A stretch of DNA of 48,566 nt from a virus. Its lineage: Duplodnaviria > Heunggongvirae > Uroviricota > Caudoviricetes. The translations under genes were made by a program, and so were the position numbers. The notes under the pieces were generated by a model. That model was not told the origin of the DNA and made no database searches. It saw only the letters and a list, made by a program, of their open reading frames with translations. Numbering within the stretch: position 1 is the first letter of the stretch; every line of letters starts with the position of its first letter. Shown here in pieces: positions 3,027-48,566 of the stretch. The stretch lies in IMG/VR virus record IMGVR_UViG_2636415673_000004, positions 1 to 48,566 of that record, one strand, 5' to 3'.

Positions 3027-5383
3027 TATACGTATTCCTTAAGCTGCGTATCTGACAATGCTCTGTTCCAGAAACGGAGGTTTTTTATATGACCATTAAG
3101 GTGTCGTAATCCTGTCGTCGTTTGCCCCCCGATACGAATCACGGCTGCTTCACGAATATATTTCCATACTGTTTTTGTTTCAGCGCTTATATGCTTATTT
3201 GCAAATGAGCATGTCATGCCGTCAGCCTTAACCCTGAATCCCATAACGAGATCCCTTACTCCGCATGATTCATATACACGTCGGTTAGCCCCGCCTATAT
3301 CGCAATACGAATAACCGTCCTGACTGATAGTTCCAGAAGAACCAAACCCCATAATAAATGGGCCTCCGGACTGGTGATTTTCTGAATCAATGACACGCGG
3401 TGCAGCATTATGAGAAATAAACCAGTTTTTATGGACTTCCACCATGAACGTAAAAGGCATGGTATACATATTTTTCATCAGCGGAAATTTACATAAATCT
3501 GATGCACGAGTCGCTGGCTCTGTTGTCGTTATGATGAAGGAAGTTGCACAAGCACCATACTCGAATTGCGGGGTGGTTACTTCTATCCAGTCACCTGTTG
3601 CAAAAGCTCCCACAGCTCTGTCGGCTGCAATTTGCAGCTGCGTACCAACCATTCCCCATTCTGGCAGACATTTCAGTGTTGCCTGAAAATATATCCATCC
3701 ACTACCAGGGTCGATTTCAAAGTTTGCTGTTAATAGCTGGGCATTGCCACCAGTAATTTGTAGTTCATGGGTCTGTAATGACAAATAGGCGTCGCAAAGG
3801 AAGGTGTATCCTTCCGAGTTATACCGTTCAAAACGGATACGTGCGCGAACATTGAGATCACTTCTTACCCTGAACGACGCGGTAACATACGGACCTTTAC
3901 TGTACTGATCATCGCCAGTCACATCTATGCCTTTGTTACCAGCAACTGTGCATATATTTCTCCCTGTTGTCGTTCCTGCTATATCGCTTCCTACCGTGAA
4001 ACGTCCATATTTAAACTCAAATTCATCTGTTGATGATGTTACAGATATACCACCGCTTTTATTCCACGCATCAGGATTAAAACTATTTACGAACATGTTT
4101 GTTCGCTGATTCTCTATCAGCAAACCATATTTTTCAAAACGAGGAACGTTATTACCTGCCACGGTAATATGCCCGGACTTATCAATATACGTTGCAGATG
4201 AAGCCCGGCTAAATTGGCATATGCCATTAACTGGCACAGTGATTTCATCGCTGCCGATGGTTATTGTTTTATACCCCGGCGCATACCCTGTTATCGCTTC
4301 CAGAGAATCATTCAAGGGTAGCCAGATATCAGGAAGCGGAGGGACAGAAGCAGGATCAGCGGCATCTTCTGCAATCCGGGCTGCATTCTCTGCTCTTGTT
4401 GCGGCTGACGTTGCTTCTGTCTCGCTGGCTGCTGCTTTTGTTTCGCTCGCCTTTGCGTTAGTTTCACTGGTTTTTGCAGCTTTTTGGCTATTAGCTGCCG
4501 CTGTTGCAGAACCAGCTGCAGCACTCTCGCTTTCGGCTGCTGCATCCTGACTGCTTTTCGCCGCAGTTTCGCTGGCTTTGGCATTCGTTTCGCTGGTCTT
4601 CGCTGCCGTCTGGCTGGACTTTGCGTTAGTTTCACTCGTCTTCGCAGCTTTCTGGCTGTTAGCCGCAGCAGTTGCTGATCCAGCTGCTGAAGTCGCAGAA
4701 CCGGCTGCCGCGCTCTCGCTTTGGGCTGCTGCAACCTGGCTGTTTTTTGCCGCAGTTTCACTGGCTTTGGCATTCGTTTCGCTGGTCTTCGCTGCCGTCT
4801 GGCTGGACTTTGCGTTGGTTTCGCTCGTCTTTGCGGCTGTCTCGCTGTTTTTCGCGTTGGTTTCTGATTTTTTGGCTGCTGTCGCGGAGTTTGCCGATGC
4901 AGTCTGTGAGGTCGCTGCCGCCTGTGCGCTGTTAGCTGCATTCGTTTCTGAGGTTTTCGCCGCGTTCTTCGATGATGCCGCTGCAGTTTCGGATTTCTTT
5001 GCCGCCGCTGCGCTCTGAGAGGCGGCTTCGGCGTTGCGTGCCGCTTCTTCCACCATTTCCTCAAAACGGCGCAATGCCTCCGGCATGACATCATCTTCCG
5101 TCATGGCACCGAGAAAATCATTCAGCGTACCTGGTCTGGAACCTTCATAGACGGTAATGGTCCCGGCATGTGAAGGCGGAAAACCTTCAACCAGCAGGGT
5201 GACGCTGTACTGGCCATACTCAACATCCATGCTGTAACGCCCGGCTTCATCAGGATTTTCAGAGGCCACCGTGTTCACCAGTACCGTGGTGCTGTTACGC
5301 TTTGCCTTCAGTTGAATAGTGCAGTTCTGTATTGGTTTTCCCGCACCATCTTTCAGCACACCTGAGATTTTTACTGCTGCCAT
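3026..5383 (-). CDS. stf: Side tail fibre protein Stf (about 785 aa) with lambda-Stf-like N-terminus, Ala/Ser/Thr tandem repeats and LamG-like C-terminal domain
   Basis: N-terminus MAAVKISGVLKDG... resembles lambda Stf; repeated KTSETNAK units; C-terminus ends in a ...NLRFWNRALSDTQL motif. ATG at 5383 preferred over GTG at 5389. Confidence 0.8.
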   Translation of the reverse strand: MAAVKISGVLKDGAGKPIQNCTIQLKAKRNSTTVLVNTVASENPDEAGRYSMDVEYGQYSVTLLVEGFPPSHAGTITVYEGSRPGTLNDFLGAMTEDDVMPEALRRFEEMVEEAARNAEAASQSAAAAKKSETAAASSKNAAKTSETNAANSAQAAATSQTASANSATAAKKSETNAKNSETAAKTSETNAKSSQTAAKTSETNAKASETAAKNSQVAAAQSESAAAGSATSAAGSATAAANSQKAAKTSETNAKSSQTAAKTSETNAKASETAAKSSQDAAAESESAAAGSATAAANSQKAAKTSETNAKASETKAAASETEATSAATRAENAARIAEDAADPASVPPLPDIWLPLNDSLEAITGYAPGYKTITIGSDEITVPVNGICQFSRASSATYIDKSGHITVAGNNVPRFEKYGLLIENQRTNMFVNSFNPDAWNKSGGISVTSSTDEFEFKYGRFTVGSDIAGTTTGRNICTVAGNKGIDVTGDDQYSKGPYVTASFRVRSDLNVRARIRFERYNSEGYTFLCDAYLSLQTHELQITGGNAQLLTANFEIDPGSGWIYFQATLKCLPEWGMVGTQLQIAADRAVGAFATGDWIEVTTPQFEYGACATSFIITTTEPATRASDLCKFPLMKNMYTMPFTFMVEVHKNWFISHNAAPRVIDSENHQSGGPFIMGFGSSGTISQDGYSYCDIGGANRRVYESCGVRDLVMGFRVKADGMTCSFANKHISAETKTVWKYIREAAVIRIGGQTTTGLRHLNGHIKNLRFWNRALSDTQLKEYV
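4420..4935. repeat. In-frame tandem DNA repeats (about 189-bp period) inside stf
   Basis: The block ccgcagtttc(g/a)ctggctttggcattcgtttcgctggtcttcgctgccgtctggctggactttgcgtt occurs at about 4561 and 4750, with degenerate copies upstream. Confidence 0.7.
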
Positions 5384-20593: not shown

Positions 20594-24274
<3,681 letters not shown>

Positions 24275-31417: not shown

Positions 31418-32170
31418 TTATCTCGTCACCTTTCTCAATTGTGCTTCAGCGTAAGATTCCTCCTGCCAGCACTTTGTAACCAGTTTATCAATGACATTTG
31501 CATATCCTTTATACCACTGATAATCACTCAGGTCCGGTACCAGCTTCTGGACATGATGCCGCGCCAGTGTGGTTGGTAAACGACTAAACCGTTTTCCATT
31601 GCAACGCCCACAAATCTTATAAACAGGTGTGCCATGAAGCCGGGTCCTTTTTTCATCCAGGACAATACCTTTACCCTTACACCCTCTGCACGCTGTGCTG
31701 ACTTCTCCCTTACCATGGCAATGCTGACATAGTTCCTTCACCCACTCTTCTTTGATAACAGATTCCCCGCTTCTGGAGTGTTTCACCACTTCGCGCAATA
31801 CATTATGAAATCCAGTACCAGCACAATGCTCACAACGAGCCTTACTTGCCGCAGACCTGGAATAATCAGCAAAGGCAAAATTCACAAGGTAAGGAATAAT
31901 CTGTAGCCGGGTTTCTTCACTCAATTTATTCAATGTCGGGTTATCCAGTGCCATCGCGTAATTGAGCAGACCTTCAATCGCAAACTGAGGATCCTGAACA
32001 CCAACTTTTGCCAGGAATAAGGCAAACCCAAGCGGTGCTTTCGACTGCACCATCCCCTGCGCAGCCATCACATCCGTAATCGTTAAACCACCAGAGCCTG
32101 TCGCCGGTGCGTCATCACTCAATTTTGGAGATTTTGGGGAGTAATATTTTGGTAAGGCTTCAAGGTTCAT
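31418..32170 (-). CDS. quuQ: Late-gene antiterminator Q (250 aa, QuuQ-like)
   Basis: Cys-rich zinc-binding motifs (CEHCAGTG...CQHCHGKG...CRGCKGKG...CGRCNGK); same length as QuuQ; sits before the late promoter and lysis genes. Confidence 0.8.
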   Translation of the reverse strand: MNLEALPKYYSPKSPKLSDDAPATGSGGLTITDVMAAQGMVQSKAPLGFALFLAKVGVQDPQFAIEGLLNYAMALDNPTLNKLSEETRLQIIPYLVNFAFADYSRSAASKARCEHCAGTGFHNVLREVVKHSRSGESVIKEEWVKELCQHCHGKGEVSTACRGCKGKGIVLDEKRTRLHGTPVYKICGRCNGKRFSRLPTTLARHHVQKLVPDLSDYQWYKGYANVIDKLVTKCWQEESYAEAQLRKVTR

Positions 32171-33180: not shown

Positions 33181-33996
33181 TCAATGAACGGTATCGAGCA
33201 GCTTTAACAGCTCAGGGAATCGGGATTCGAAGAAATGCGGCTGCGTCTCGCGCGGATTTGCAGGACTGGTGATGTTCTTGCCGAACATGCAGCCTTTCGC
33301 GGTCAGCGACCAGAATTTTTTGATGTTGTTAATCGCGGTACGACTGTATCGTTCGCGTTGTTCAACGATCCCCAGCTTCGCCATCTGGTGATATGCCTGA
33401 TTAGCCGTCAGGCGGATACCATACTGCTTCAGCAGTGCACTCAGCGACAGCGTAGGGCGGCTTGAACCATCTGGCGCATCAGCAGGTGCATCAATGGCAT
33501 AGATCGGCATAAGTTCAGGAAGACCAGCTACCTTTGATAATTTCTGGTATGCACCAAGTTTCGAGGAGTTTGACAGATTTAGAGTCTTCGCTGCTGATTC
33601 AAGCAGAATGACCCCGGATTTAATTTTGTCGGATGTGGTTTCTTCTGGTGATGAATTATGAAGCGCATCAAAAGTACGTATCACTTTTAAGCTGAATGCC
33701 GGGCTGATCCACATTGCATATGCATAGACCAGCTCTTTACAGACATACGTCCCACCATTGCGCCCCTGAATGGTGATGACAGGAATACTACGGGAATCTC
33801 CCGTAGTTTCTTCTTCCAATAATTCCACAAGAGCCTTCGTTTCAGGACGACGCATAAACTCGTGAACTTCCAGCGAACGGGAGGAGCGATTCTCACCAGC
33901 GGCAAGAAGAGCAGCTTTCTGAAGGTCGTTAAGACAGTAGTTAGATTCGAAGTACTGGCGCACAGAAACGCCATCAATTACAAGCAACTGATTCAT
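33181..33996 (-). CDS. KilA-N domain protein (antirepressor-like), about 271 aa
   Basis: N-terminal KilA-N signature (...ITIQGRNGGTYVCKELVYAYAMWISPAFSLKVIRTFD); ATG at 33996 with GGAG 6 nt upstream. Confidence 0.7.
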   Translation of the reverse strand: MNQLLVIDGVSVRQYFESNYCLNDLQKAALLAAGENRSSRSLEVHEFMRRPETKALVELLEEETTGDSRSIPVITIQGRNGGTYVCKELVYAYAMWISPAFSLKVIRTFDALHNSSPEETTSDKIKSGVILLESAAKTLNLSNSSKLGAYQKLSKVAGLPELMPIYAIDAPADAPDGSSRPTLSLSALLKQYGIRLTANQAYHQMAKLGIVEQRERYSRTAINNIKKFWSLTAKGCMFGKNITSPANPRETQPHFFESRFPELLKLLDTVH

Positions 33997-34092
33997 TGGT
34001 TTCTCCACAAATTTTTATCCACGAGCGGGACTGCACTCCCTTTTCGTTGATGCAGGATGAACTTACTGCGATTTTTAATAGTTATCAAGGAT

Positions 34093-34113
34093 ACACTGTT
34101 CATAAATACAGTA
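34093..34113. promoter_or_regulatory. LexA (SOS) box in the promoter region upstream of the KilA-N gene
   Basis: caCTGTtcataaatACAGta: perfect CTGT-N8-ACAG core (34096-34111) with AT-rich spacer, about 16/20 match to TACTGTATATATATACAGTA. Confidence 0.65.
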
Positions 34114-34158
34114 TCTTTAACGAGGTAATACCCAAATTTAGGGTGTTGCTCAATTCCG

Positions 34159-34554
34159 TTACCGAGTTGCTAATTTGCAACTCGCTTTTTCGTACTTACT
34201 GATAGTGATCTCGACCTTCCCCTCCGGGATAACCGGTCCCCACTCCACCAGCATTCTTTTCACCTGACTGTCGTCTTCCCACACCCCCGCGTGGGTCAGG
34301 GCGTCAAACAGCGCCTTGTTATAGTTGTCCAGATCGCGGATCCGGTTATCCGGAGGAAACAACACGATCTCCACTGAAGCAGGTGCCGACGTTGGTTTCG
34401 GCAGACGACGTAACTGCTCAACTATTGCTGCACACGCCGCGCTCTGGAATTTTCGCCCCGCCGCGCTTATCAGGCTCTTACCAGCAAACGCCCCTTTGTT
34501 GGGGTGTCGCCAGTACGTGTTCACGCTGGGCGGAAAAGGCAGGATCAGCTTCAT
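34159..34554 (-). CDS. rusA: RusA-family Holliday-junction resolvase (131 aa)
   Basis: LPFPPSVNTYWRH...RDLDNYNKALFDALTHAGVWEDDSQV has the RusA catalytic-Asp region; ATGA overlap with the upstream gene. Confidence 0.8.
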   Translation of the reverse strand: MKLILPFPPSVNTYWRHPNKGAFAGKSLISAAGRKFQSAACAAIVEQLRRLPKPTSAPASVEIVLFPPDNRIRDLDNYNKALFDALTHAGVWEDDSQVKRMLVEWGPVIPEGKVEITISKYEKASCKLATR

Positions 34555-34877
34555 ACTTTCAGGCCTCTCTCATGTAACCAATGGGCTGCACGCAGCCTGG
34601 CGTTTTCCTCACCGGCAAGCAGTGAGCGGATAATCCCGACCGCCTCGCTGTCGTCGTCCTTCGCCACGGTATGAAGCGTGATCCCCCGGGCCACACCACG
34701 CTTTATCGTGATGACGCCTTTTTTCTCCAGTGCGCGAAGATGCTCCACCGCTGCATTCACTGAACGGTATCCCAGCATGGTTGCCACCTCCAGATTGGTT
34801 GGCGGGAAGCCACGTTCTTTCTGATAAGAAATCAGCATATCCAGCACCTGCTGCTGGCATTGAGTTAACGTCGTCAT
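34551..34877 (-). CDS. LexA-like winged-HTH DNA-binding protein lacking the S24 peptidase domain (108 aa)
   Basis: MTTLTQCQQQVLDMLISYQKERGFPPTNLEVATMLGYRSVNAAVEHLRALEKKGVITIKRGVARGITL aligns with the LexA N-terminal DBD; no Ser/Lys peptidase domain follows. Confidence 0.65.
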   Translation of the reverse strand: MTTLTQCQQQVLDMLISYQKERGFPPTNLEVATMLGYRSVNAAVEHLRALEKKGVITIKRGVARGITLHTVAKDDDSEAVGIIRSLLAGEENARLRAAHWLHERGLKV

Positions 34878-35527
34878 GCCGCCATCTCCCTGACCAGTTT
34901 TTCCGCCTGCTGGCGAACCTGCGCCAGAAACGCCTCACCACATGCCTCAAGTTCATCGCGCCCGATGTAGCTGATTGCCGGTCCCTTCCAGGTCTTGTCG
35001 AAAACAGCAATAGCACCAGCGAAGAAAGCGCCTGTCGGCACCTGCTTCTCATCTTTCGGGATAAACCAGGCAGGCAGTTCAAAACCAATACGCCCGCGAA
35101 TAAAAGCAATATGATCTGCATCTTCCGGCCACCACACTTCGCTGGTGGCAGCTTTGATCAGGAAAACATAGCGCCCGCCTTTATCACGCATGGCACTGGC
35201 ATGTTTCATGATGTAACGCATGCCGGTGATGTATTGCCCCTCATGCTGACTGGCGCGGCTGTATGGGGGATTACCAAAGGCAGCACCTTTAAGCTCCGCA
35301 AGACGTTCTGACCAGTCATGCGCCAGCGCGTTGTCTTCCGCCGTGTAATACGCGGCACATTTGGCGTTATCACCATCGGTAAACAGATCCAGAACAAACG
35401 GGCCAAACAGGGTGTTAATCCCCCAGAAAATGTTATCCGGCGTGCGCCACTGATCGCCCACTTCCTTCAGTTCATGGGCTGGTTTGTTCCGCAGTTCCAC
35501 CAGTGCCTGACAATATTTATTACTCAT
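34874..35527 (-). CDS. Phage-type DNA N6-adenine methyltransferase (about 217 aa)
   Basis: NPPY catalytic motif (GNPPYSR); ATG at 35527 forms a TAATG overlap with the upstream stop (ORF-track frame begins with GTG at 35560). Confidence 0.75.
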   Translation of the reverse strand: MSNKYCQALVELRNKPAHELKEVGDQWRTPDNIFWGINTLFGPFVLDLFTDGDNAKCAAYYTAEDNALAHDWSERLAELKGAAFGNPPYSRASQHEGQYITGMRYIMKHASAMRDKGGRYVFLIKAATSEVWWPEDADHIAFIRGRIGFELPAWFIPKDEKQVPTGAFFAGAIAVFDKTWKGPAISYIGRDELEACGEAFLAQVRQQAEKLVREMAA

Positions 35528-36021
35528 TAAGCCCCCACGTAATTCCCTGACAGATACCACTCTTCACCCGATGCAGCGCGCTTGCTGCTTTTCCGTAAGC
35601 ACCGCTCACGACGCGCCAGAAAATTGTTTCGTTCTGGCTGGGAGTGGCTTTCACGGAATGCCGCCATCCACACGGTTGCAGCACGACGAAATAAGCCCCT
35701 GGACTCCAGTTCTTCAGCCTGGCGGGTCAGGCACAAAATCACCCGGGGATCGTTAGTGCCGACATAGAAATTGCGCACAGGTCTGGTTTCACGAACTGGT
35801 TGTGGTTCCGGCTCCTGCGCTCTCTCAGTCAGGCGCGGGAAATGTCTGCGTGTATCTCCTTCACAACGGTGAGCCACACGCCCGCTCTGACGTAACTTGC
35901 TTGCTGACTGCAGTACGCGCTGCCGTGAGTAACCTGCAAAAGCATCCGCAATGTCTCCGGAAGTACACCCCGGATGGGCTTCAATGAATTTCTGAACGTC
36001 ATTCAAAAGACTCATGCTCAC
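35527..36021 (-). CDS. Hypothetical protein with PerC-like C-terminal region (164 aa)
   Basis: ELESRGLFRRAATVWMAAF...ERNNFLARRERCL resembles the PerC/Pch motif (LExRGLWRRAA); N-terminal half unassigned. Confidence 0.4.
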   Translation of the reverse strand: MSMSLLNDVQKFIEAHPGCTSGDIADAFAGYSRQRVLQSASKLRQSGRVAHRCEGDTRRHFPRLTERAQEPEPQPVRETRPVRNFYVGTNDPRVILCLTRQAEELESRGLFRRAATVWMAAFRESHSQPERNNFLARRERCLRKSSKRAASGEEWYLSGNYVGA

Positions 36022-36959
36022 CCCCTGAATCCTGCCGGGATCTGGCTGTAGTCCACATTGTCGTAACTGGCTTTGAAGTACGGGTCTTCGCGTTTTTCTG
36101 TGTACGTGCTGATGGACGGCGATAAGCGCAGGGAAAGCTCATCCCATTTTTCCCGCAGCTTCGACGGGCTGAGCACGTTACGGCACCAGAACGGATCGCG
36201 GCTGATGCGGCTGTACATCTCGCAGATTTGTTTGTGAGTACGACCATCCTGCACACACATCAGGCGAATTTCGTTTGCCCAGGCTGTCCAGTTCGGTTCT
36301 TTGGGACGAACCACCTCGCCGTCACATTCGGCGGCCTGCTCGTACAGGGCGATGATTTTTTTCCAGAGCCACTGTGCGCAGGTCAAATCATCCTGCGTTC
36401 CCCACTGGCACTTTTTAGGGCTGAATACAACCGCATCAGGATGGCGAGTTAAAAAATCCTGTTCAGCCGTCTGCGTGTCCGGTTGCGAAACGTCCGGACG
36501 AGAAGGTTTTTTATCTGACGGATCATATTTTGATTTTACTGACGGATCCCCGCCAGATTCTGACGGGTGAAAACCCGCTTTTTTGCCAGATTTCGACGCA
36601 TCAAATTTTGACGGGTCAGATTTTGATGCGTCAGATTTTGACGGGTCAGAATCTGACAGTTGAGAAAATGCCGCGGCCTGAAGCTTCGCAACGTTAAGCT
36701 GATAAACATTCGACGCATTACGGTTACCCTGGCGACGCGCCTTACGCGTTAACCAGCCTTCTGCTTCCAGCCGTGCAATAGCCGTTCTGACGGTACTCAT
36801 CCCCGCGCCAATCTGGCGGGCAATGGTTTCAATCGATGGCCAGCACACACCTTCGTCATTACTGAAATCAGCCAGGCGGGCCATAATTGCCACACTGGAT
36901 AATTTCATGCCTGACGCTGCGCAACCATCCCATACATAGCCGGTTAATTTAGTGCTCAT
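36018..36959 (-). CDS. Replication initiation protein (N-terminal HTH, repeat-encoded linker, C-terminal helical domain), 313 aa
   Basis: HTH region (SIETIARQIGAGMSTVRTAIARLEAEGWL); the SDPSKSDASKSDPSKFDASKS linker is encoded by DNA iterons; sits in the O position after cro/cII-like genes. Confidence 0.6.
   Translation of the reverse strand: MSTKLTGYVWDGCAASGMKLSSVAIMARLADFSNDEGVCWPSIETIARQIGAGMSTVRTAIARLEAEGWLTRKARRQGNRNASNVYQLNVAKLQAAAFSQLSDSDPSKSDASKSDPSKFDASKSGKKAGFHPSESGGDPSVKSKYDPSDKKPSRPDVSQPDTQTAEQDFLTRHPDAVVFSPKKCQWGTQDDLTCAQWLWKKIIALYEQAAECDGEVVRPKEPNWTAWANEIRLMCVQDGRTHKQICEMYSRISRDPFWCRNVLSPSKLREKWDELSLRLSPSISTYTEKREDPYFKASYDNVDYSQIPAGFRG
36510..36665. repeat. Iteron array (candidate replication origin) inside the replication gene
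   Basis: About 8 copies of a TGACGG(G/A)T-centred 15-bp unit at 15-24 bp spacing (for example ttttgacgggtcaga twice). Confidence 0.55.
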
Positions 36960-38197: not shown

Positions 38198-38824
38198 ATG
38201 GAAACGGTTGGTCAGCGTATAAAAGCTCTGAGAAGGGTTACCAGAACGTCCCAGAAAGAATTGGGTAAATTTTGTGGGGTAAGTGACGTTGCTGTGGGGT
38301 ACTGGGAAAAAGACATCAATGTCCCTGGCGGGGAAGCACTTTCGAAATTAGCGAAGTTCTTTAATACGTCAATAGATTACATTCTTTATGGTGCTGAGTT
38401 TGAAGGCAAACTAGTCACAAACATGCGCAGAGTTCCTGTAATTTCGTGGGTTCAGGCTGGGCAGTTTACTGAGTGCAGGGCAGCAGAAGTGTTTAGTGAA
38501 GTGGACAAGTGGGTAGATACATCTTTAAAGATTGGTGATAACTCATTTGCATTAGAAGTTAAAGGCGACTCCATGACTAATCCTAATGGCCTCCCAACAA
38601 TACCAGAAGGTGCAACAGTGATTGTAGATCCTGATGCAGAACCTCGTCATGGAAAAATAGTCATTGCTCGACTTGATGGAACGAACGAAGCTACAGTAAA
38701 AAAATTAGTCATCGATGGTCCTCAAAAGTTTTTAGTGCCATTAAATCCACGGTATCCCAACATCCCAATCAATGGTAATTGCCTGATCATTGGTGTAGTC
38801 AAAGGAGTTCAATACGAACTCTAG
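38198..38824 (+). CDS. cI: CI-type prophage repressor (HTH-XRE plus S24 LexA-like autopeptidase), 208 aa
   Basis: N-terminal HTH (QKELGKFCGVSDVAVGYWEKD); C-terminal S24 motifs GDSM (Ser) and a downstream Lys (ATVKKL). Confidence 0.85.
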   Translation: METVGQRIKALRRVTRTSQKELGKFCGVSDVAVGYWEKDINVPGGEALSKLAKFFNTSIDYILYGAEFEGKLVTNMRRVPVISWVQAGQFTECRAAEVFSEVDKWVDTSLKIGDNSFALEVKGDSMTNPNGLPTIPEGATVIVDPDAEPRHGKIVIARLDGTNEATVKKLVIDGPQKFLVPLNPRYPNIPINGNCLIIGVVKGVQYEL

Positions 38825-40473: not shown

Positions 40474-41298
40474 ATGTCTCAGAACTTAGACGCAACCGCA
40501 ATTAATCAAATCCATGCCCTTATTTCTGCTCAGGGTGTTAATGAAATTATCAGTAAGATTGGTGCCGATGCTGTGGCATTGCCTGAGAATTTCCGCATTC
40601 ATGATCTGGAAAAATTTAATTTAAATCGCTTCCGTTTCCGTGGTGCGCTTTCCACTGCCAGCATCGATGACTTTACCCGTTATTCTAAAGATCTTGCAGA
40701 TGAAGGCACCCGCTGCTTTATCGATGCCGATAATATGCGAGCCGTCAGTGTGCTTAACCTGGGTACTATTGGTGAACCAGGTCACGCAGATAACACCGCC
40801 ACACTCAAACTGAAAAAGACAGCACCGTTCTCTGCTCTGTTGTCTGTTAATGGCGAGCGTAACTCCCAGAAGTCACTGGCAGAATGGATTGAAGACTGGG
40901 CCGACTACCTTGTGGGCTTTGATGCTAATGGTGACGCTATTCAGGCAACAAAAGCGGCTGCGGCGGTCCGAAAAATCACGATTGAAGCAAACCAGACCGC
41001 TGATTTTGAAGATAATGACTTCAGCGGCAAACGCTCCCTGATGGAGTCTGTCGAAGCGAAGACCAAAGATATTATGCCAGTGGCATTTGAATTTAAATGC
41101 GTTCCGTTTGAAGGTCTGAAAGAACGTCCATTTAAATTACGCCTCAGCATTATCACTGGCGATCGTCCTGTACTGGTTCTGCGCATTATTCAGCTGGAAG
41201 CAGTGCAGGAAGAAATGGCTAACGAATTTCGTGATCTGCTTGTTGAGAAATTCAAAGACAGCAAAGTAGAAACCTTTATTGGTACTTTCACCGCCTGA
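40474..41298 (+). CDS. yfdQ: YfdQ-like (DUF2303-family) protein (274 aa)
   Basis: Same length as K-12 CPS-53 YfdQ and in the same neighbourhood as YfdR/YfdS-like genes; GTGAGGA RBS. Confidence 0.6.
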
Positions 41299-43332: not shown

Positions 43333-46300
43333 TCACACGCTGCGCCTTCGAGAATATTCATTTAATCGCTGATAACGAACATCTTGCTCCAGTTGTGGAG
43401 CAGCTTGAACAATTTGAAGCAAGCATTGCCCCAACTCTCGAGGCCCCCAGTGTTGTTCGGCAATCACGGCATTCAGCAGGGATAGAGCGTCCGCAGGATA
43501 TCGGCTGCAAATATCTGATTCTAGCAAAAGGCGAACGTCGTAGCTAAGGTGTTCGAGCGGTTGCAGCCAGTCCTGCACCACTGCCAAAGCCGCCGGAAAT
43601 TCACCTCGGGCAGCAATCACCATACGAGTCAACGATTCGGATATGCGTGGGGTGGCCAAGTTGCGGGACTTTGGCCAAACCTGTTGCCAAAATGGCTGGA
43701 CACGATTTTTCCAATACTCCTCGCGCTGATCGCCCGCACCTTCAAGTGCCTGGTATAACGCCTGCGCGGCTACCTCCAGACCTTCTTGTGGAAGAGCACT
43801 AATTGCCGTTCGGAACTCCTCCACGGTATATCCCTCGGTAGGGCCCAGAGCTGCATAAGTCAGGAAAGTAGCGAATTGCTGCCGGTGCTCGCCAAGATCA
43901 GAATAGTGATTGGCGCTCTCCAAAAAATCTGACTTGAAAGCTATCAGCAACGGTTCATACAGGCGTGGCGACCAGAGGAAGCCTTCCCACACAGCTTTTG
44001 CTTCGACGGGATTACTCCAAGCAAACAAGGGCAATAGATACTGTTCGGTCCAAGGTCGATCTACGCGAAAAAATGCGATCAGCCGCGACCCCAGCAACAC
44101 CCGACCATGGCGGAATAGCTCTATCTGTACATTACACAATTTGGTGAAAAGTGTTTTCAATTCAACAGGAAGCAAATCATTGTCATTCGGGTTCTGTTTG
44201 AACCATAGGGTGATCAGTGATTGCGTGACATGCCCAATGGGATGATTGATCGCCGTAGAAACAGGATCATAGGTCTCAATTCCGTTTCGAATGGTGCTAG
44301 ACTCTGGGCTTGTTTCTATCATCAGAACCCGACGACAAAGGGCCAGTAGAATCTCCTCGTGGCAGAGGATGGTCTTCGAAGCCTCCTCCATCCACCAAGT
44401 GACAGCGTGGGAAATCTCCTGAAGTACTGCGTCAGGCATGTCAAGCACCAACGGTGCGGCGTACCGCCACGAACGCAAAATCATCCCTGGTTCAGCCCAA
44501 GTCTGCAGAGCTTCACGCCACCGACCAACAGGCCACACATCATCTTGTGATAGTTTACTTAACGCATACAGACTGTGAAAAAAGCGCGTACGGCAAACAT
44601 CACTCCAAGTGTCCTCATAGAAAGGCAGTCTTTCTGGCATAGGCTTTGCGAGCCATTGCACTAATTCCTGCCACTTACGGGGCGCAATGTCGACATCTAT
44701 ATTCTCCTCGAAGCCTGGATCACCGGTTCCGCTCATCCAGTGAGAGAATTCATCACGCTCGTTGGTTGCCAGTTGCCATTTTGGGTATGCTGTGGATATT
44801 TCCGTCAAACGTGTAGCCGCAGACTCTCCCAAAACAAGGCCCGCTCCCCTGAGCTTCGCTAGACACAACCAGACGGAATGAGCCACCAAATAATGCCACC
44901 TGTCTGCTTCCAAATTATCCTCGTACATCTCGCGCGGAGGCCCTGCCAAGATAGCAGTTTCCAGACGCTCTTGTGCAATTCCTGTCAGATGTCGTCCCTG
45001 CAAAACAAACAGTCTGAATACCTCTCGCCCAGTATCCGTGGCCCACAACCACCATGAACCGTCCTCTAACAACCAATTAACCCACCGCTCAGGTGGTATG
45101 CAGTTGTCTTGGCTTGCGGCAAACAGTGCCAGACGTTTGAAGGTGGGATATGGCAACTCAAACCAATTCTGAGCAATGCGCGTGGCCTGATCGCTGTCTT
45201 TGGCTCGAACGGCTAACCATGAATCCCGAAGTAATTCAATCAGGCTCACCCAATCGCGGAACCCCCGGTTCTGCCAGTGCGGAGTGATGGACGGCAAATC
45301 CCAATGCGAGCGGTCGTGACGATCGTCGGACTCTCCCAACTCCCGCAACAAGTCCAGTGCATCACGCAACAACTGCTGAAAATCTTCCAACAGGTATGGC
45401 AAGGACGATTTCCATGACTCGTCAGCAAGGTCGAACAGGGTTGAACGTACGTAATCAGCAGTCAGCACCAGCTCCCAATCCACCAATTGCTTGATTCGCA
45501 AGGGTTCATCAGTGCTGCTCGAATCGTCTTCACTATAGCGAAACGGCCGCCTCAACATAACCTTGGGAGAAAGCAACTCGCGTAACTCCAAGCGCAATGT
45601 AGTCGTCAAGCCTTCATTCTTTAAGCGGTTTTGCCAACGATACAAATCCAGGTTCTGCAATGGCGATTTCACACGACCACTAAGCAGAAGCCGCCATAAA
45701 GTAGACATAGGTGGACCAGGAATAGCCAGGGGGGAATGCAAGAGAATTTCATCTAACTCAAAAGTCTTACGCTCCCGCATCAGTGCTGCTAAGCGATCTA
45801 GTTCGCTCTCAATCAGAAACATCCAACGGTCGTGTATTTGTCCGCCGCGTTCAGCAATCCATATGATCAACCTAGGGTCGCCCAGATAACGAACTAGCCA
45901 ACGGGCTATATGGGACATTACGTCATCCCATTTGCTAGCACTGACACATCCAGAAACCAGCGACATCTGCAGGGCCAGCTCATAGGGCGCAGGACGCTGA
46001 ACCAGACTGAATCGGAGTTTCGGGTCAATTTCGACATGCGGAGATACACAAAAGCGTGGCAGATCGCTGTATTTAAATCGTTCGTCCGAGAAAGCTTTCA
46101 ATAACCAATCCAGCGGCGGTGCAGGATTGAGTTCCGCAAAGCGTTTTGCTGGTAAACCTGATTTATCTGACAAGGCCCACAACATCCGACCAACGAAATC
46201 GTCCTGACGAGTGCTGTCCTGCGGGCGGGCCAGAGCATGTTTGACGACTATAGCCTCTTTGCCCTGTATACCATCTCGATAAGTATCTGCCCAAGCGTGC

Positions 46301-47160
46301 AACGTTTGATGCAGCACTGAATGATCAGTGGAGCCCGCCGGTACGGTGTAAAGGATAGGAGTGACCCCTTTGGCCTCCCACTCGATGGCTTTCCGGTGCT
46401 CCTGCCCCGGCTCACACTCCCCCAGTGCCCATACTTGTGGTGTGACTTCACCGAGCCTCCGATCTGCTGCAAGCGCATCCATCATGTAGCGCAGTACCGG
46501 GTCGTTGATGCTGTAGCCAACGAAGCAGACCACATAGTTACGAAATAACTCACTCACAAAGCGAGCTGCCCAACGCTCAGTGAGATAAGCCAAGCCAAAG
46601 TCACCGCTGGTAACAACCAGACGATTCAGGGCAGTATCATCCGCCTTTTCCGGTAACAGCCCATGCAGGTATACAAGTCCATCCCAGCGGCTGTTTTTTG
46701 GAATTGGCAGCATCGGCGCTACATAGGCCTGAAAAGCCTGGCCTGTACGTTTAGCTGCCACATGAAAGAGACGGTCAAAGTTGGTAGTGACCAATCGAAG
46801 GGCACCCTCGCGGCTACGGGCTAAACGTAACAGCGCCGCCTGAGTATCAATAGCGCCCCTACGACGGAGCTTTGGCTTAAGGGCTTTTTCCAACGCGCGT
46901 CGGACGGCTATACGCTGCCCTGGTAAGCGCCGTTCCAGCAAATCTAATGTGCCGTCAAATTGCCCACGCTCGAAAACCTCACGCTCAATTTCTGAAAGTG
47001 TTGTTCCGTTCCTCTGGTAAATTAGTTCTACCAACCCTTTGAAACCAGGTAAACCAGCAGGGTAGGAAATGCCTGCTCCACAGAAGAACACAACGCGCCC
47101 TTCCTCGTGCGCCTGCAAAAGCTCATCAGGAATATCAGGGCCGTTGGTAATGAATTGCAT
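43333..47160 (-). CDS. Large SIR2-domain protein (1275 aa): N-terminal sirtuin-like NADase domain (about aa 20-290) plus about 1000-aa helical C-terminal region of unknown function; candidate antiphage defence protein
   Basis: Sirtuin motifs GAGIS-x-P-x-GLPGF (aa 28-40), TTNFD (N127) and YLHG (H166); strong RBS (AGGAGG, 7 nt, ATG); cargo position between xis and int. Confidence 0.8.
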   Translation of the reverse strand: MQFITNGPDIPDELLQAHEEGRVVFFCGAGISYPAGLPGFKGLVELIYQRNGTTLSEIEREVFERGQFDGTLDLLERRLPGQRIAVRRALEKALKPKLRRRGAIDTQAALLRLARSREGALRLVTTNFDRLFHVAAKRTGQAFQAYVAPMLPIPKNSRWDGLVYLHGLLPEKADDTALNRLVVTSGDFGLAYLTERWAARFVSELFRNYVVCFVGYSINDPVLRYMMDALAADRRLGEVTPQVWALGECEPGQEHRKAIEWEAKGVTPILYTVPAGSTDHSVLHQTLHAWADTYRDGIQGKEAIVVKHALARPQDSTRQDDFVGRMLWALSDKSGLPAKRFAELNPAPPLDWLLKAFSDERFKYSDLPRFCVSPHVEIDPKLRFSLVQRPAPYELALQMSLVSGCVSASKWDDVMSHIARWLVRYLGDPRLIIWIAERGGQIHDRWMFLIESELDRLAALMRERKTFELDEILLHSPLAIPGPPMSTLWRLLLSGRVKSPLQNLDLYRWQNRLKNEGLTTTLRLELRELLSPKVMLRRPFRYSEDDSSSTDEPLRIKQLVDWELVLTADYVRSTLFDLADESWKSSLPYLLEDFQQLLRDALDLLRELGESDDRHDRSHWDLPSITPHWQNRGFRDWVSLIELLRDSWLAVRAKDSDQATRIAQNWFELPYPTFKRLALFAASQDNCIPPERWVNWLLEDGSWWLWATDTGREVFRLFVLQGRHLTGIAQERLETAILAGPPREMYEDNLEADRWHYLVAHSVWLCLAKLRGAGLVLGESAATRLTEISTAYPKWQLATNERDEFSHWMSGTGDPGFEENIDVDIAPRKWQELVQWLAKPMPERLPFYEDTWSDVCRTRFFHSLYALSKLSQDDVWPVGRWREALQTWAEPGMILRSWRYAAPLVLDMPDAVLQEISHAVTWWMEEASKTILCHEEILLALCRRVLMIETSPESSTIRNGIETYDPVSTAINHPIGHVTQSLITLWFKQNPNDNDLLPVELKTLFTKLCNVQIELFRHGRVLLGSRLIAFFRVDRPWTEQYLLPLFAWSNPVEAKAVWEGFLWSPRLYEPLLIAFKSDFLESANHYSDLGEHRQQFATFLTYAALGPTEGYTVEEFRTAISALPQEGLEVAAQALYQALEGAGDQREEYWKNRVQPFWQQVWPKSRNLATPRISESLTRMVIAARGEFPAALAVVQDWLQPLEHLSYDVRLLLESDICSRYPADALSLLNAVIAEQHWGPRELGQCLLQIVQAAPQLEQDVRYQRLNEYSRRRSV

Positions 47161-47342: not shown

Positions 47343-48566
47343 TCATTTCGAGCCTGAACGAGTACAAGTAACAATCGATTCAACTCTCTCCCACCATGCC
47401 TGGTAGGCTTTACGCTGTTCTTCTAGATAATCACTCTTGTCATAAACTTGCCATACACCTGGCAGTTTATGACCGAGCATTATTTCAGCAATATGAGGCG
47501 CAGTAAGATCAGAAAAGTTTGTTCGTGCTGTTCGTCTCAAATCATGAAGAGACCAATGAGGAAATTGATACCCCAAACGCCGCCATGCGTACTGCATTAA
47601 ATTGTAAGGTAGCGACTGCAATGATGTCCGACCAACTGGTTCCCTGCTTCCTTCCTTAGTAAAAAGCATATCGGAACCGTTGTTCATAGAGATAACGTAT
47701 TTTATAAGCTCTTCAACCGGTTCAATAATGGGCCGCTTTAGCGGTTCGCCTGTTATATCCCCTGTCTTATGTCGTTCTGGTGGTACAGTCCATATTTTAT
47801 TAATGAAATCAAAATCGTCCACCTTGGCAGTAATTAGCTCTGAACTACGGCAACCAAAATGCAGCAATAGTTTAATGAAGGCCCGGTATTTAGGAACCAT
47901 TCGAGAACCATCGATCGCAGCATAAAGGATTTTAATTTCATCATGTGTCAGAAACCGTTTCTTCTGACCTTTACGGATATCCATATCTTTACCCGTGATA
48001 TCCGACAGCGGGCGAGTTTCAATGAGCTTTCTCTTATACGCCCAGACATGGGCCTGCTTTGCGTTAATTAGCAATCGGTCTGCTATTGCTGGAGTCTTAG
48101 TGCTAAGAGGCTCCAGGACTTCTAACCAATCATGCAATGTAGCTGCATCGTGAGGGATATTCCCGATTTTAGAGAACAGGTGCAGCTCAAACGAGCGGAG
48201 TATCTGTTCAGAACCTTTTTTATTTTTTACACAATATGCTTCATACCAAGCACGGATCACAGATTCTACCGTCATGGCTTCAGTAGCTTTACGTTTTTCT
48301 GCCAGCTTGACCAATCGTGGATTGCGGTTTGACTCGAGTTCACCACGAAGACGGATAACTTCTTCTCTGGCCTCTTTTAGTCCAGTTGCCGGGTAAGTTC
48401 CGATATCAAGACGCTCACCTTTCCCCGCCCACTGATAACGATATTGGAACACTACGCGACCTTTCGGTGATACTCTAACAGACAGACCATCACGATCGGA
48501 TTTAACCAAAACCTTATCACGTTCCTTTCCAACAACTGAACGCAACCACGCATCAGACAGCGCCAT
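47343..48566 (-). CDS. int: Tyrosine-type phage integrase (407 aa); ATG at the window edge
   Basis: N-terminus MALSDAWLRSVVGKERDKVL...GLSVRVSPKGRVVFQYRY typical of P4-like integrases; C-terminal catalytic region with HDLRRT and HxxG-Y motifs. Confidence 0.85.
   Translation of the reverse strand: MALSDAWLRSVVGKERDKVLVKSDRDGLSVRVSPKGRVVFQYRYQWAGKGERLDIGTYPATGLKEAREEVIRLRGELESNRNPRLVKLAEKRKATEAMTVESVIRAWYEAYCVKNKKGSEQILRSFELHLFSKIGNIPHDAATLHDWLEVLEPLSTKTPAIADRLLINAKQAHVWAYKRKLIETRPLSDITGKDMDIRKGQKKRFLTHDEIKILYAAIDGSRMVPKYRAFIKLLLHFGCRSSELITAKVDDFDFINKIWTVPPERHKTGDITGEPLKRPIIEPVEELIKYVISMNNGSDMLFTKEGSREPVGRTSLQSLPYNLMQYAWRRLGYQFPHWSLHDLRRTARTNFSDLTAPHIAEIMLGHKLPGVWQVYDKSDYLEEQRKAYQAWWERVESIVTCTRSGSK

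Follow-up and report, generated by a model that had tools for sequence, protein, structure and literature searches.

A stretch of viral DNA of 48,566 nucleotides (IMG/VR record IMGVR_UViG_2636415673_000004, Caudoviricetes, positions 1 to 48,566; the whole stretch is called the window below) encodes a protein of 108 amino acids, here called the LexA-like protein, which is a LexA-type DNA-binding domain without the self-cleaving protease half. Our analysis of this protein, its gene neighbourhood and its relatives suggests that it very probably binds DNA and cannot be cleaved. Taken as a whole it is best read, tentatively, as a RecA-insensitive winged-helix DNA-binding regulator of the LexA family with an operator that would most likely resemble the LexA box. 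The protein belongs to an existing family which is already annotated (phrog_362; "LexA family protein") and which is uncharacterised; literature searches returned no functional or experimental study of LexA-like proteins of the phrog_362 type. As a kind, the phage-encoded stand-alone LexA DNA-binding domain is already known from gp6 of phage GIL01. The gene and its parts are as follows.

34551-34877, minus strand: LexA-like open reading frame, 108 amino acids; phrog_362; RefSeq name "LexA family protein"
34674-34877, minus strand: winged helix-turn-helix, residues 1-68; counterpart of LexA's N-terminal domain by PF01726, by the structural model and by its root mean square deviation (rmsd) from LexA
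34740-34763, minus strand: start of the recognition helix, codons 39-46, SVNAAVEH where LexA has SPNAAEEH
34554-34655, minus strand: two-helix C-terminal hairpin, residues 75-108; helices from the model, conserved, proposed to serve dimerisation or partner binding

A LexA DNA-binding domain without the peptidase

The Pfam model PF01726 (LexA_DNA_bind) is matched over its full length by residues 1-65 of the LexA-like protein (model positions 1-65 of 65, E-value 1e-18; the score is 67.3 bits, where the cut-off is 23.7), and BLASTP aligns residues 1-90 with residues 1-86 of E. coli LexA at 43% identity (E 1e-21). The best solved relatives are structures of LexA's N-terminal domain and of full-length LexA. 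In an AlphaFold model built on 13 family members, with a mean predicted local distance difference test score (pLDDT) of 82.7, helices are placed at residues 6-22, 28-35 and 40-52 and the strands of the wing at 56-58 and 66-68; a disordered linker (69-75) then leads to a pair of additional helices (75-87 and 93-102). In this model the winged-helix portion superimposes on LexA in the LexA-DNA crystal 3jso_B with an rmsd of 1.0 Å over 68 residues, at 50% identity.

The second half of LexA is missing. The protein has no match to the S24 peptidase family (PF00717), a tblastn search over the whole window returned no remnant of a LexA C-terminal domain, and the reading frame stops after residue 108, where the next gene, rusA, begins with a 4-nucleotide overlap (ATGA). 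The NCBIfam equivalog model for lexA (TIGR00498) is covered only at positions 1-91 of 203 and yields 69.7 bits, below its cut-off of 110.95. Lacking an S24 domain and a conserved cleavage site, and scoring under the equivalog cut-off, the protein is not a LexA in the strict sense. A first-pass annotation of this DNA had described it as a LexA winged helix-turn-helix without the Ser/Lys peptidase, which is borne out by the PF01726 match, the 43% identity and the absence of both an S24 domain and a remnant; that annotation also called the protein uncleavable, and rightly so, as self-cleavage is impossible without the Ser/Lys peptidase domain.

The gene is under purifying selection. Among close copies the ratio of nonsynonymous to synonymous substitution rates (dN/dS) is 0.17-0.48, and in comparisons with homologues at 47-66% protein identity the synonymous sites are saturated while dN is 0.22-0.64. 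Together with the thousands of family members in the databases, these values indicate a real gene, not a chance reading frame or one in decay. That the gene might be a truncated or frameshifted lexA pseudogene is ruled out by the absence of a C-terminal remnant, by purifying selection, by the conserved length and by the clean ATGA coupling to rusA.

Family and prevalence

Residues 1-108 match the profile of phrog_362 ("transcriptional repressor") over model positions 1-106 of 106 (E 9.9e-59), and the length is conserved among the thousands of database members. Copies with 92-98% identity are found in the phages SfV (orf42), SfII, SfIV, mEp460 and cdtI and in many phages that carry Shiga toxin (Stx) genes of the types Stx2a and Stx2c, where they have been annotated, among others, as "LexA DNA binding domain protein", "LexA-like protein" or "repressor, lexA family". 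Among complete E. coli genomes, 2233 of 5426 (about 41%) contain the gene, at 2855 places in all; RefSeq lists it there as "LexA family protein" or as "LexA family transcriptional regulator". Identity to the annotated copies in SfV, SfII, mEp460, cdtI, Stx2 phages and these E. coli genomes is 94-100%.

A scan of genome contigs returned mostly ordinary host lexA genes. Stand-alone LexA DNA-binding domains of phage are widespread in predicted viral proteomes, and a phmmer scan of 1.84 billion representative proteins recovered relatives with the tail at 40-52% identity. The same scan returned several proteins of 160-350 amino acids (P0136, P0150, P0151, P0154, P0155, P0163, P0173 and P0174) with two separate matches to the LexA DNA-binding domain each; possibly these are tandem "pseudo-dimers" in which other organisms carry the domain twice on a single chain.

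The C-terminal tail

The tail (residues 75-108) is modelled as two amphipathic helices with a pLDDT of about 87 and is conserved down to about 40% identity. Its most likely role would be dimerisation, which in LexA is supplied by the absent C-terminal domain. A fold search beyond LexA gave weak matches (E about 1e-2) to regulators of the MntR/DtxR type, in which a winged helix-turn-helix is followed by helical dimerisation elements. Because of these elements the matches fit a tail used for dimerisation; they are no proof of it.

Both BLAST and hidden Markov model alignments extend through residues 70-86 of LexA and place the dipeptide A88-G89 on the LexA cleavage bond A84-G85, in a region where alignment confidence is low. 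Close relatives have AN or VG in place of this dipeptide, distant ones TG, TR, DD, AE or ER, and the segment is modelled as helical and not as a beta hairpin. The Ala-Gly cleavage site is thus not conserved in the family. The tail could possibly be a remnant of the LexA linker that has turned into a small helical module.

Recognition helix, wing and the search for an operator

According to PMC3091678, the residues of LexA helix 3 that contact bases are S39, N41, A42, E44 and E45. Four of these five (S39, N41, A42 and E45) are kept in the LexA-like protein, as is H46 of the same helix, whereas E44 is replaced by V; P40 is likewise V. The helix-3 sequence SVNAAVEH is identical to SPNAAEEH of LexA at 6 of 8 positions, compared with 48% over the rest of the domain. 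In 12 family members, reaching down to 39% identity, it is identical at 3-7 of 8 positions (median 6) compared with 45-55% elsewhere. In the wing, G61, R64, G65 and I66 (G-x-x-R-G-I) are kept; PMC8565304, citing the LexA-DNA structure, attributes the fixed spacing of LexA operators to contacts of the wing. Conservation of the recognition residues, which the first-pass annotation had proposed as a check, therefore holds for S39, N41, A42, E45 and the wing, but not for E44. To judge from the residues, the kept helix 3 and wing favour a LexA-like operator.

Scans of the window for CTGT-N(0-14)-ACAG at all these spacings and with an SOS-box matrix found no site other than the SOS box at 34094-34113, which is described below, and scans of the PR', OR and PL regions for inverted repeats found nothing of the CTGT type. 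The operator of the LexA-like protein is possibly SOS-box-like, with the balance slightly against it.

Gene neighbourhood and expression context

The genes and sites around the LexA-like gene that are considered here are the following.

36018-36959, minus strand: O-like replication protein
35527-36021, minus strand: PerC-like protein, 164 amino acids, with a PerC transcriptional-activator domain (yfdN type); directly upstream of the Dam gene
34874-35560, minus strand: phage Dam-type N6-adenine methyltransferase (PF05869, E 1e-45; TIGR01712); its stop overlaps the LexA-like start (ATGA)
34159-34554, minus strand: RusA Holliday-junction resolvase (PF05866); its start overlaps the LexA-like stop (ATGA)
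34009-34158, minus strand: 150-nucleotide spacer particular to one KilA-N allele, with the SOS box and weak promoter-like hexamers
34094-34113: SOS box, the 20-mer TACTGTATTTATGAACAGTG in minus-strand reading; the only strong one in the window
33181-34008, minus strand: KilA-N domain protein (PF04383, phrog_129), downstream of the SOS box; likely true start ATG 33996
31418-32170, minus strand: antiterminator Q
38198-38824, plus strand: CI repressor of the phage, HTH_3 and Peptidase_S24

On the minus strand the order is O-like replication protein, PerC-like protein, Dam, LexA-like protein, RusA, spacer, KilA-N protein, a DUF968/HNH protein and Q. No intergenic stretch precedes the LexA-like gene, and to judge from the overlaps it is translationally coupled to dam upstream and to rusA downstream within the early-right (nin) string. 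By its position, and by analogy with the organisation of lambdoid genomes, it would be a delayed-early gene of the rightward operon. The CI of the phage itself is an ordinary repressor with a helix-turn-helix and an S24 domain, cleavable with the help of RecA.

To see how constant this arrangement is, we considered 81 close loci, that is viral loci with a LexA-like gene at least 96% identical. RusA follows the LexA-like gene in all 81, and Dam precedes it in 55; in the other 26 the PerC-like gene directly abuts the LexA-like gene, which rules out an obligatory partnership with Dam. In phage mEp390, the homologue (47% identical) lies between a replication gene and rusA, with neither Dam nor KilA-N. 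The SfV record annotates a promoter for dam. This promoter is a weak one, and the window has one base changed in the -35 hexamer, so that it provides no evidence of expression in lysogens.

Two further features of the window were recorded. A hairpin, CGAGTTGC-loop-GCAACTCG, lies at 34163-34184 inside the 3' end of rusA and is followed by a T-run on the plus strand only; it looks terminator-like for antisense transcription, not for the operon. At 43333-47160 (minus strand), between the excision region and the integrase (47343-48566), a protein of 1275 amino acids is encoded which matches the defence-associated sirtuin Dsr1 over its full length (PADLOC PDLC02183, 2729 bits; Pfam SIR2_2) and looks like anti-phage defence cargo of this prophage.

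The SOS box and the KilA-N gene

The SOS box that the first-pass annotation had noted at 34096 is real. Its core, CTGTTCATAAATACAG, lies at 34096-34111, and the 20-mer scores 21.3 bits, while the runner-up in the whole 48.6-kb window reaches 12.8 bits; the matrix is a rough one made from about 20 E. coli boxes, whose own scores range over 12-27 bits (median about 21). The box is situated 45 nucleotides 3' of the rusA stop codon and about 85-100 nucleotides 5' of the KilA-N start, which is likely ATG 33996 (preceded by GGAG) and not GTG 34008. Weak sigma-70-like hexamers flank it, the best being TTGATA-17-TAAGTT (8 of 12), and a standard promoter scan flagged nothing around it. The simplest reading is that the box is an operator of host LexA controlling an internal promoter of this KilA-N allele, which would make the KilA-N protein probably LexA-controlled; an antirepressor-like role for it is conceivable.

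The box occurs, at a constant offset, in 16 of the 81 close loci. Loci without it have another KilA-N allele (66-69% identical) that begins about 20-25 nucleotides after rusA. Within complete E. coli genomes the 150-nucleotide spacer is present at 203 places in 185 genomes (including O104:H4 HUSEC2011), as compared with the 2855 places of the LexA-like gene, so the box accompanies at most about 7% of the copies. The unit of SOS box and KilA-N 5' end also replaces the last 6 or so codons of rusA. The 16 of 81 loci, the 203 against 2855 places and the lack of KilA-N in mEp390 show that box and KilA-N 5' end are a mosaic module of their own. The tie between the LexA-like gene and this SOS box is incidental; the box belongs to one KilA-N allele. 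A functional link to the box and a dedicated role as regulator of the KilA-N module, both suggested in the first-pass annotation, are accordingly not upheld: the spacer goes with a single allele, and mEp390 has the gene with no KilA-N at all.

Other strong SOS boxes were seen in relatives of this phage: in SfV at 34170, in mEp460 at 41021, 31970, 23255 and 23283, in WGPS2 at about 6408 and in mEp390 at 20706. They lie at the start of a late-region DNA methyltransferase gene (orf48 type), within cI about 180 nucleotides from its start, and in dinI promoters, where they are expected.

Two architectures among distant relatives

The contexts of distant relatives bearing the tail, and of 80 further viral loci, were sorted into two classes. 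Class E, which includes the window, has the order (methyltransferase), LexA-like protein, RusA, further genes, DUF968 and Q, with RusA downstream in most members; no upstream SOS box was found in about 42 loci. In distant class E phages the upstream slot holds different methyltransferases, namely a Dam (PF05869), a C5 enzyme (PF00145) and a fusion of PF00145 with PF02086 (loci L106, L107 and L109). Such a slot could be either an insertion hot spot for cargo genes or a sign of functional association.

Class K comprises a Klebsiella-type clade with an N-terminal extension and SSNAVLLH or SPNAVALH in helix 3 (phrog_362, E 1.5e-41). Here the order is a strong SOS box overlapping the -10 element, dinI (PF06183), orf85 (phrog_1813), LexA-like protein, orf67, DUF968 and Q, with neither RusA nor KilA-N; locus L117 (4370-5378) is an example. 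Of about 38 class K loci, 31 have an SOS box 640-800 nucleotides upstream of the codons for helix 3, among them seven without dinI, which keep the box directly before orf85. No convincing terminator was found between dinI and orf85, and Q could be reachable from the SOS promoter. The gene order thus suggests that, in part of the family, cleavage of LexA turns the gene on, beside an anti-RecA gene, which would link the family with the SOS circuit.

In L117 a promoter-like TTACCA-18-TACAAT with a TG element lies at 4900-4935, a short way upstream of the LexA-like gene of this class K locus. The same segment holds a palindrome, CTGGTTACCAG, and repeated CTGGTT motifs, a site that is possibly a private operator of the class K clade.

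Comparison with known systems

With E. coli LexA's N-terminal domain (PDB 1lea, 3jso) the LexA-like protein shares its fold and a clear homology; it descends from that domain and would work in a similar way. It differs from LexA by the lack of the S24 residues Ser119/Lys156, of a conserved Ala-Gly site and of a LexA-type dimerisation domain; E44 and R28 are replaced, a two-helix tail of its own is present, and the gene is encoded by a phage, in the nin region. The LexA cleavage fragment 1-84 is likewise a LexA DNA-binding domain without the C-terminal domain. This fragment reportedly retains repressor activity unless it is removed by ClpXP, and is said to keep specific but weaker operator binding. 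It is, however, a transient product with a ClpX degron (..VAA), whereas the LexA-like protein has a gene dedicated to it and a C-terminus that is different and conserved.

The only characterised phage-encoded truncated LexA homologue is gp6 of the Bacillus tectivirus GIL01 (PMC6182141). Like the LexA-like protein it is a stand-alone LexA DNA-binding domain of a temperate phage, expressed in a context tied to the SOS switch. The two nevertheless belong to separate families (phrog_3502, E 1.8e-21, for gp6; phrog_362 for the LexA-like protein), gp6 has no helical tail, and BLASTP gave no alignment between them. Our operator scans of the window found no candidate for a gp6-type palindrome over the -35 element of a late promoter.

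A further likeness is to PNB-2, a winged helix-turn-helix protein that redirects the methyltransferase M.EcoPA8 in Stx phages (PMC10810198). In this PNB-2/M.EcoPA8orf6770P holoenzyme of Stx2a phages, which belong to the same phage group, a small winged-helix protein is also co-expressed with a phage methyltransferase. The PNB-2 module, though, lies near the integrase end and has a methyltransferase of the MT-A70 type, whereas the neighbour of the LexA-like gene is of the PF05869 type. Identity of the two proteins is ruled out, as the gene for PNB-2 is another one, close to int (WGPS2 genes 05-07), and BLASTP shows no similarity.

Possible functions

In the reading that we prefer, the LexA-like protein would not serve as an immunity repressor; it would be translated from the early-right (PR-type) transcript when the phage grows lytically or is induced. 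The helical tail would supply dimerisation in place of the LexA C-terminal domain, and the dimer would bind a palindrome through helix 3 and the wing. Because S39, N41, A42, E45 and the wing are kept in this E. coli clade, the operator here would most likely be LexA-box-like, with half-sites of the CTGT type. SOS-box-type promoters, of the host or of phages, would then stay occupied during the destruction of host LexA. The box at 34094-34113 would be one possible target and not a dedicated one. A recurrent SOS context, with one strong box in the window and the SOS-box promoter of class K, speaks for this reading, which falls just short of being probable.

Several observations weigh against it. 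None of 12 family members has kept E44, which has given way to V, A, T, F or L, and none has kept R28, while both are present in three true LexA proteins of the same alignment. In the 80 further viral loci positions 43-45 of helix 3 vary by clade (AVE, AAE, AND, ATD, AAD, VLL, VAL), and since all the hosts share one SOS box, this looks like diversification of specificity and not like mimicry. In other clades E45 becomes D, L, T or G; class K, the clade with the tightest linkage to an SOS box, has lost it to L, so that its arrangement supports a role in an SOS-triggered programme more than LexA mimicry at SOS boxes. No strong SOS box lies within 4 kb of the gene in 50 of the 81 close loci, which, with the 16 loci that have the box of the window and the 203 against 2855 places, rules out an obligatory partnership with the SOS box or with KilA-N. 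Finally, the site recognised by gp6 of GIL01 (66 amino acids) is GaCACA..TGTGaC and not the LexA box, and the protein acts as an activator of a late promoter (PMC6182141). The loss of E44 and the variation between clades weaken a general role as "LexA mimic"; for this E. coli clade such a role is possible.

Its most specific form, in which the protein is an uncleavable LexA surrogate that re-occupies SOS boxes after the destruction of host LexA, seems rather unlikely to us. A surrogate of this kind would appear after the early genes of the phage have been switched on or, in class K, be expressed directly from the SOS promoter next to dinI. Quite possible, although doubtful, is a phage-specific regulator of the gp6 type, with an operator of its own unrelated to the SOS box, which would activate or repress a phage promoter and could, for example, time Q or the late genes. 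The precedent of gp6, the family-wide loss of E44 and R28, the clade variation at positions 43-45, the constant place upstream of DUF968 and Q in both architectures and the absence of a nearby phage SOS box from most copies all agree with it. On the other hand, no candidate operator was found, the window has no LexA-type palindrome other than the SOS box, and helix 3 of this clade, with S39, N41, A42 and E45 kept, is still identical to LexA at 6 of 8 positions.

The remaining explanations are improbable to different degrees. As a nucleic-acid-targeting accessory subunit of the Dam-type methyltransferase or of RusA, the LexA-like protein would not be a transcription factor at all. The ATGA overlaps on both sides would suit such a partnership but are weak evidence for it, stop-start overlaps between genes being common in phage operons. 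Three methyltransferase families immediately upstream of distant homologues and RusA downstream in 81 of 81 close loci would also suit it, and yet Dam is absent from 26 of these loci and from mEp390, and RusA from the whole Klebsiella-type clade. This explanation, which is improbable, leans by analogy on PNB-2 (PMC10810198), to which the protein has no similarity. A shade more improbable still is the model of the first-pass annotation, an uncleavable repressor dedicated to the SOS box at 34096 and to the KilA-N module. Box and gene lie on the same strand in one gene string, the box is the only strong one in the window and follows the rusA stop by 45 nucleotides, and the recognition residues are mostly kept; against this stand the occurrence of box and spacer in only 16 of 81 close loci and at 203 as against 2855 places in E. 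coli genomes, the other KilA-N allele about 20-25 nucleotides after rusA with no box, and the relatives in mEp390 and Klebsiella without KilA-N. We give very little credit to a decoy for the cleavage machinery, in which the tail with its Ala-Gly at 88-89 would dock to S24 active sites or RecA filaments and inhibit cleavage of LexA or CI, or be cut in trans. The alignments through LexA 70-86, which bring A88-G89 onto A84-G85, would allow it, but they are of low confidence there, the Ala-Gly is conserved in neither close nor distant relatives, and the segment is predicted with a pLDDT of about 87 to be helical and not a beta hairpin; on the same grounds a mimic of the cleavage site is unlikely.

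Implications

As an annotation the LexA-like gene is unsurprising; as biology it is mildly intriguing, given how common it is in E. coli, Stx phages included, and how easily a member of this large family could be tested. If the protein binds an operator of its own, it would be the second independent case, after gp6 of GIL01, of a LexA domain recruited as a private phage regulator. If its targets are SOS boxes, the SOS response would be modulated by a prophage gene that is very common, in a manner blind to RecA. As the SOS response governs mutagenesis, the induction of prophages and of Shiga toxin, and persistence, this would bear on competition between prophages and on antibiotic-induced toxin release in Shiga toxin-producing E. 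coli, whose Stx2a and Stx2c phages carry the gene. Should it indeed be a LexA surrogate, it would shut off SOS functions of the host, SOS-controlled antirepressors of competing prophages and SOS-box genes of its own phage such as the KilA-N gene, and about 41% of complete E. coli genomes would contain a phage-encoded "SOS off-switch".

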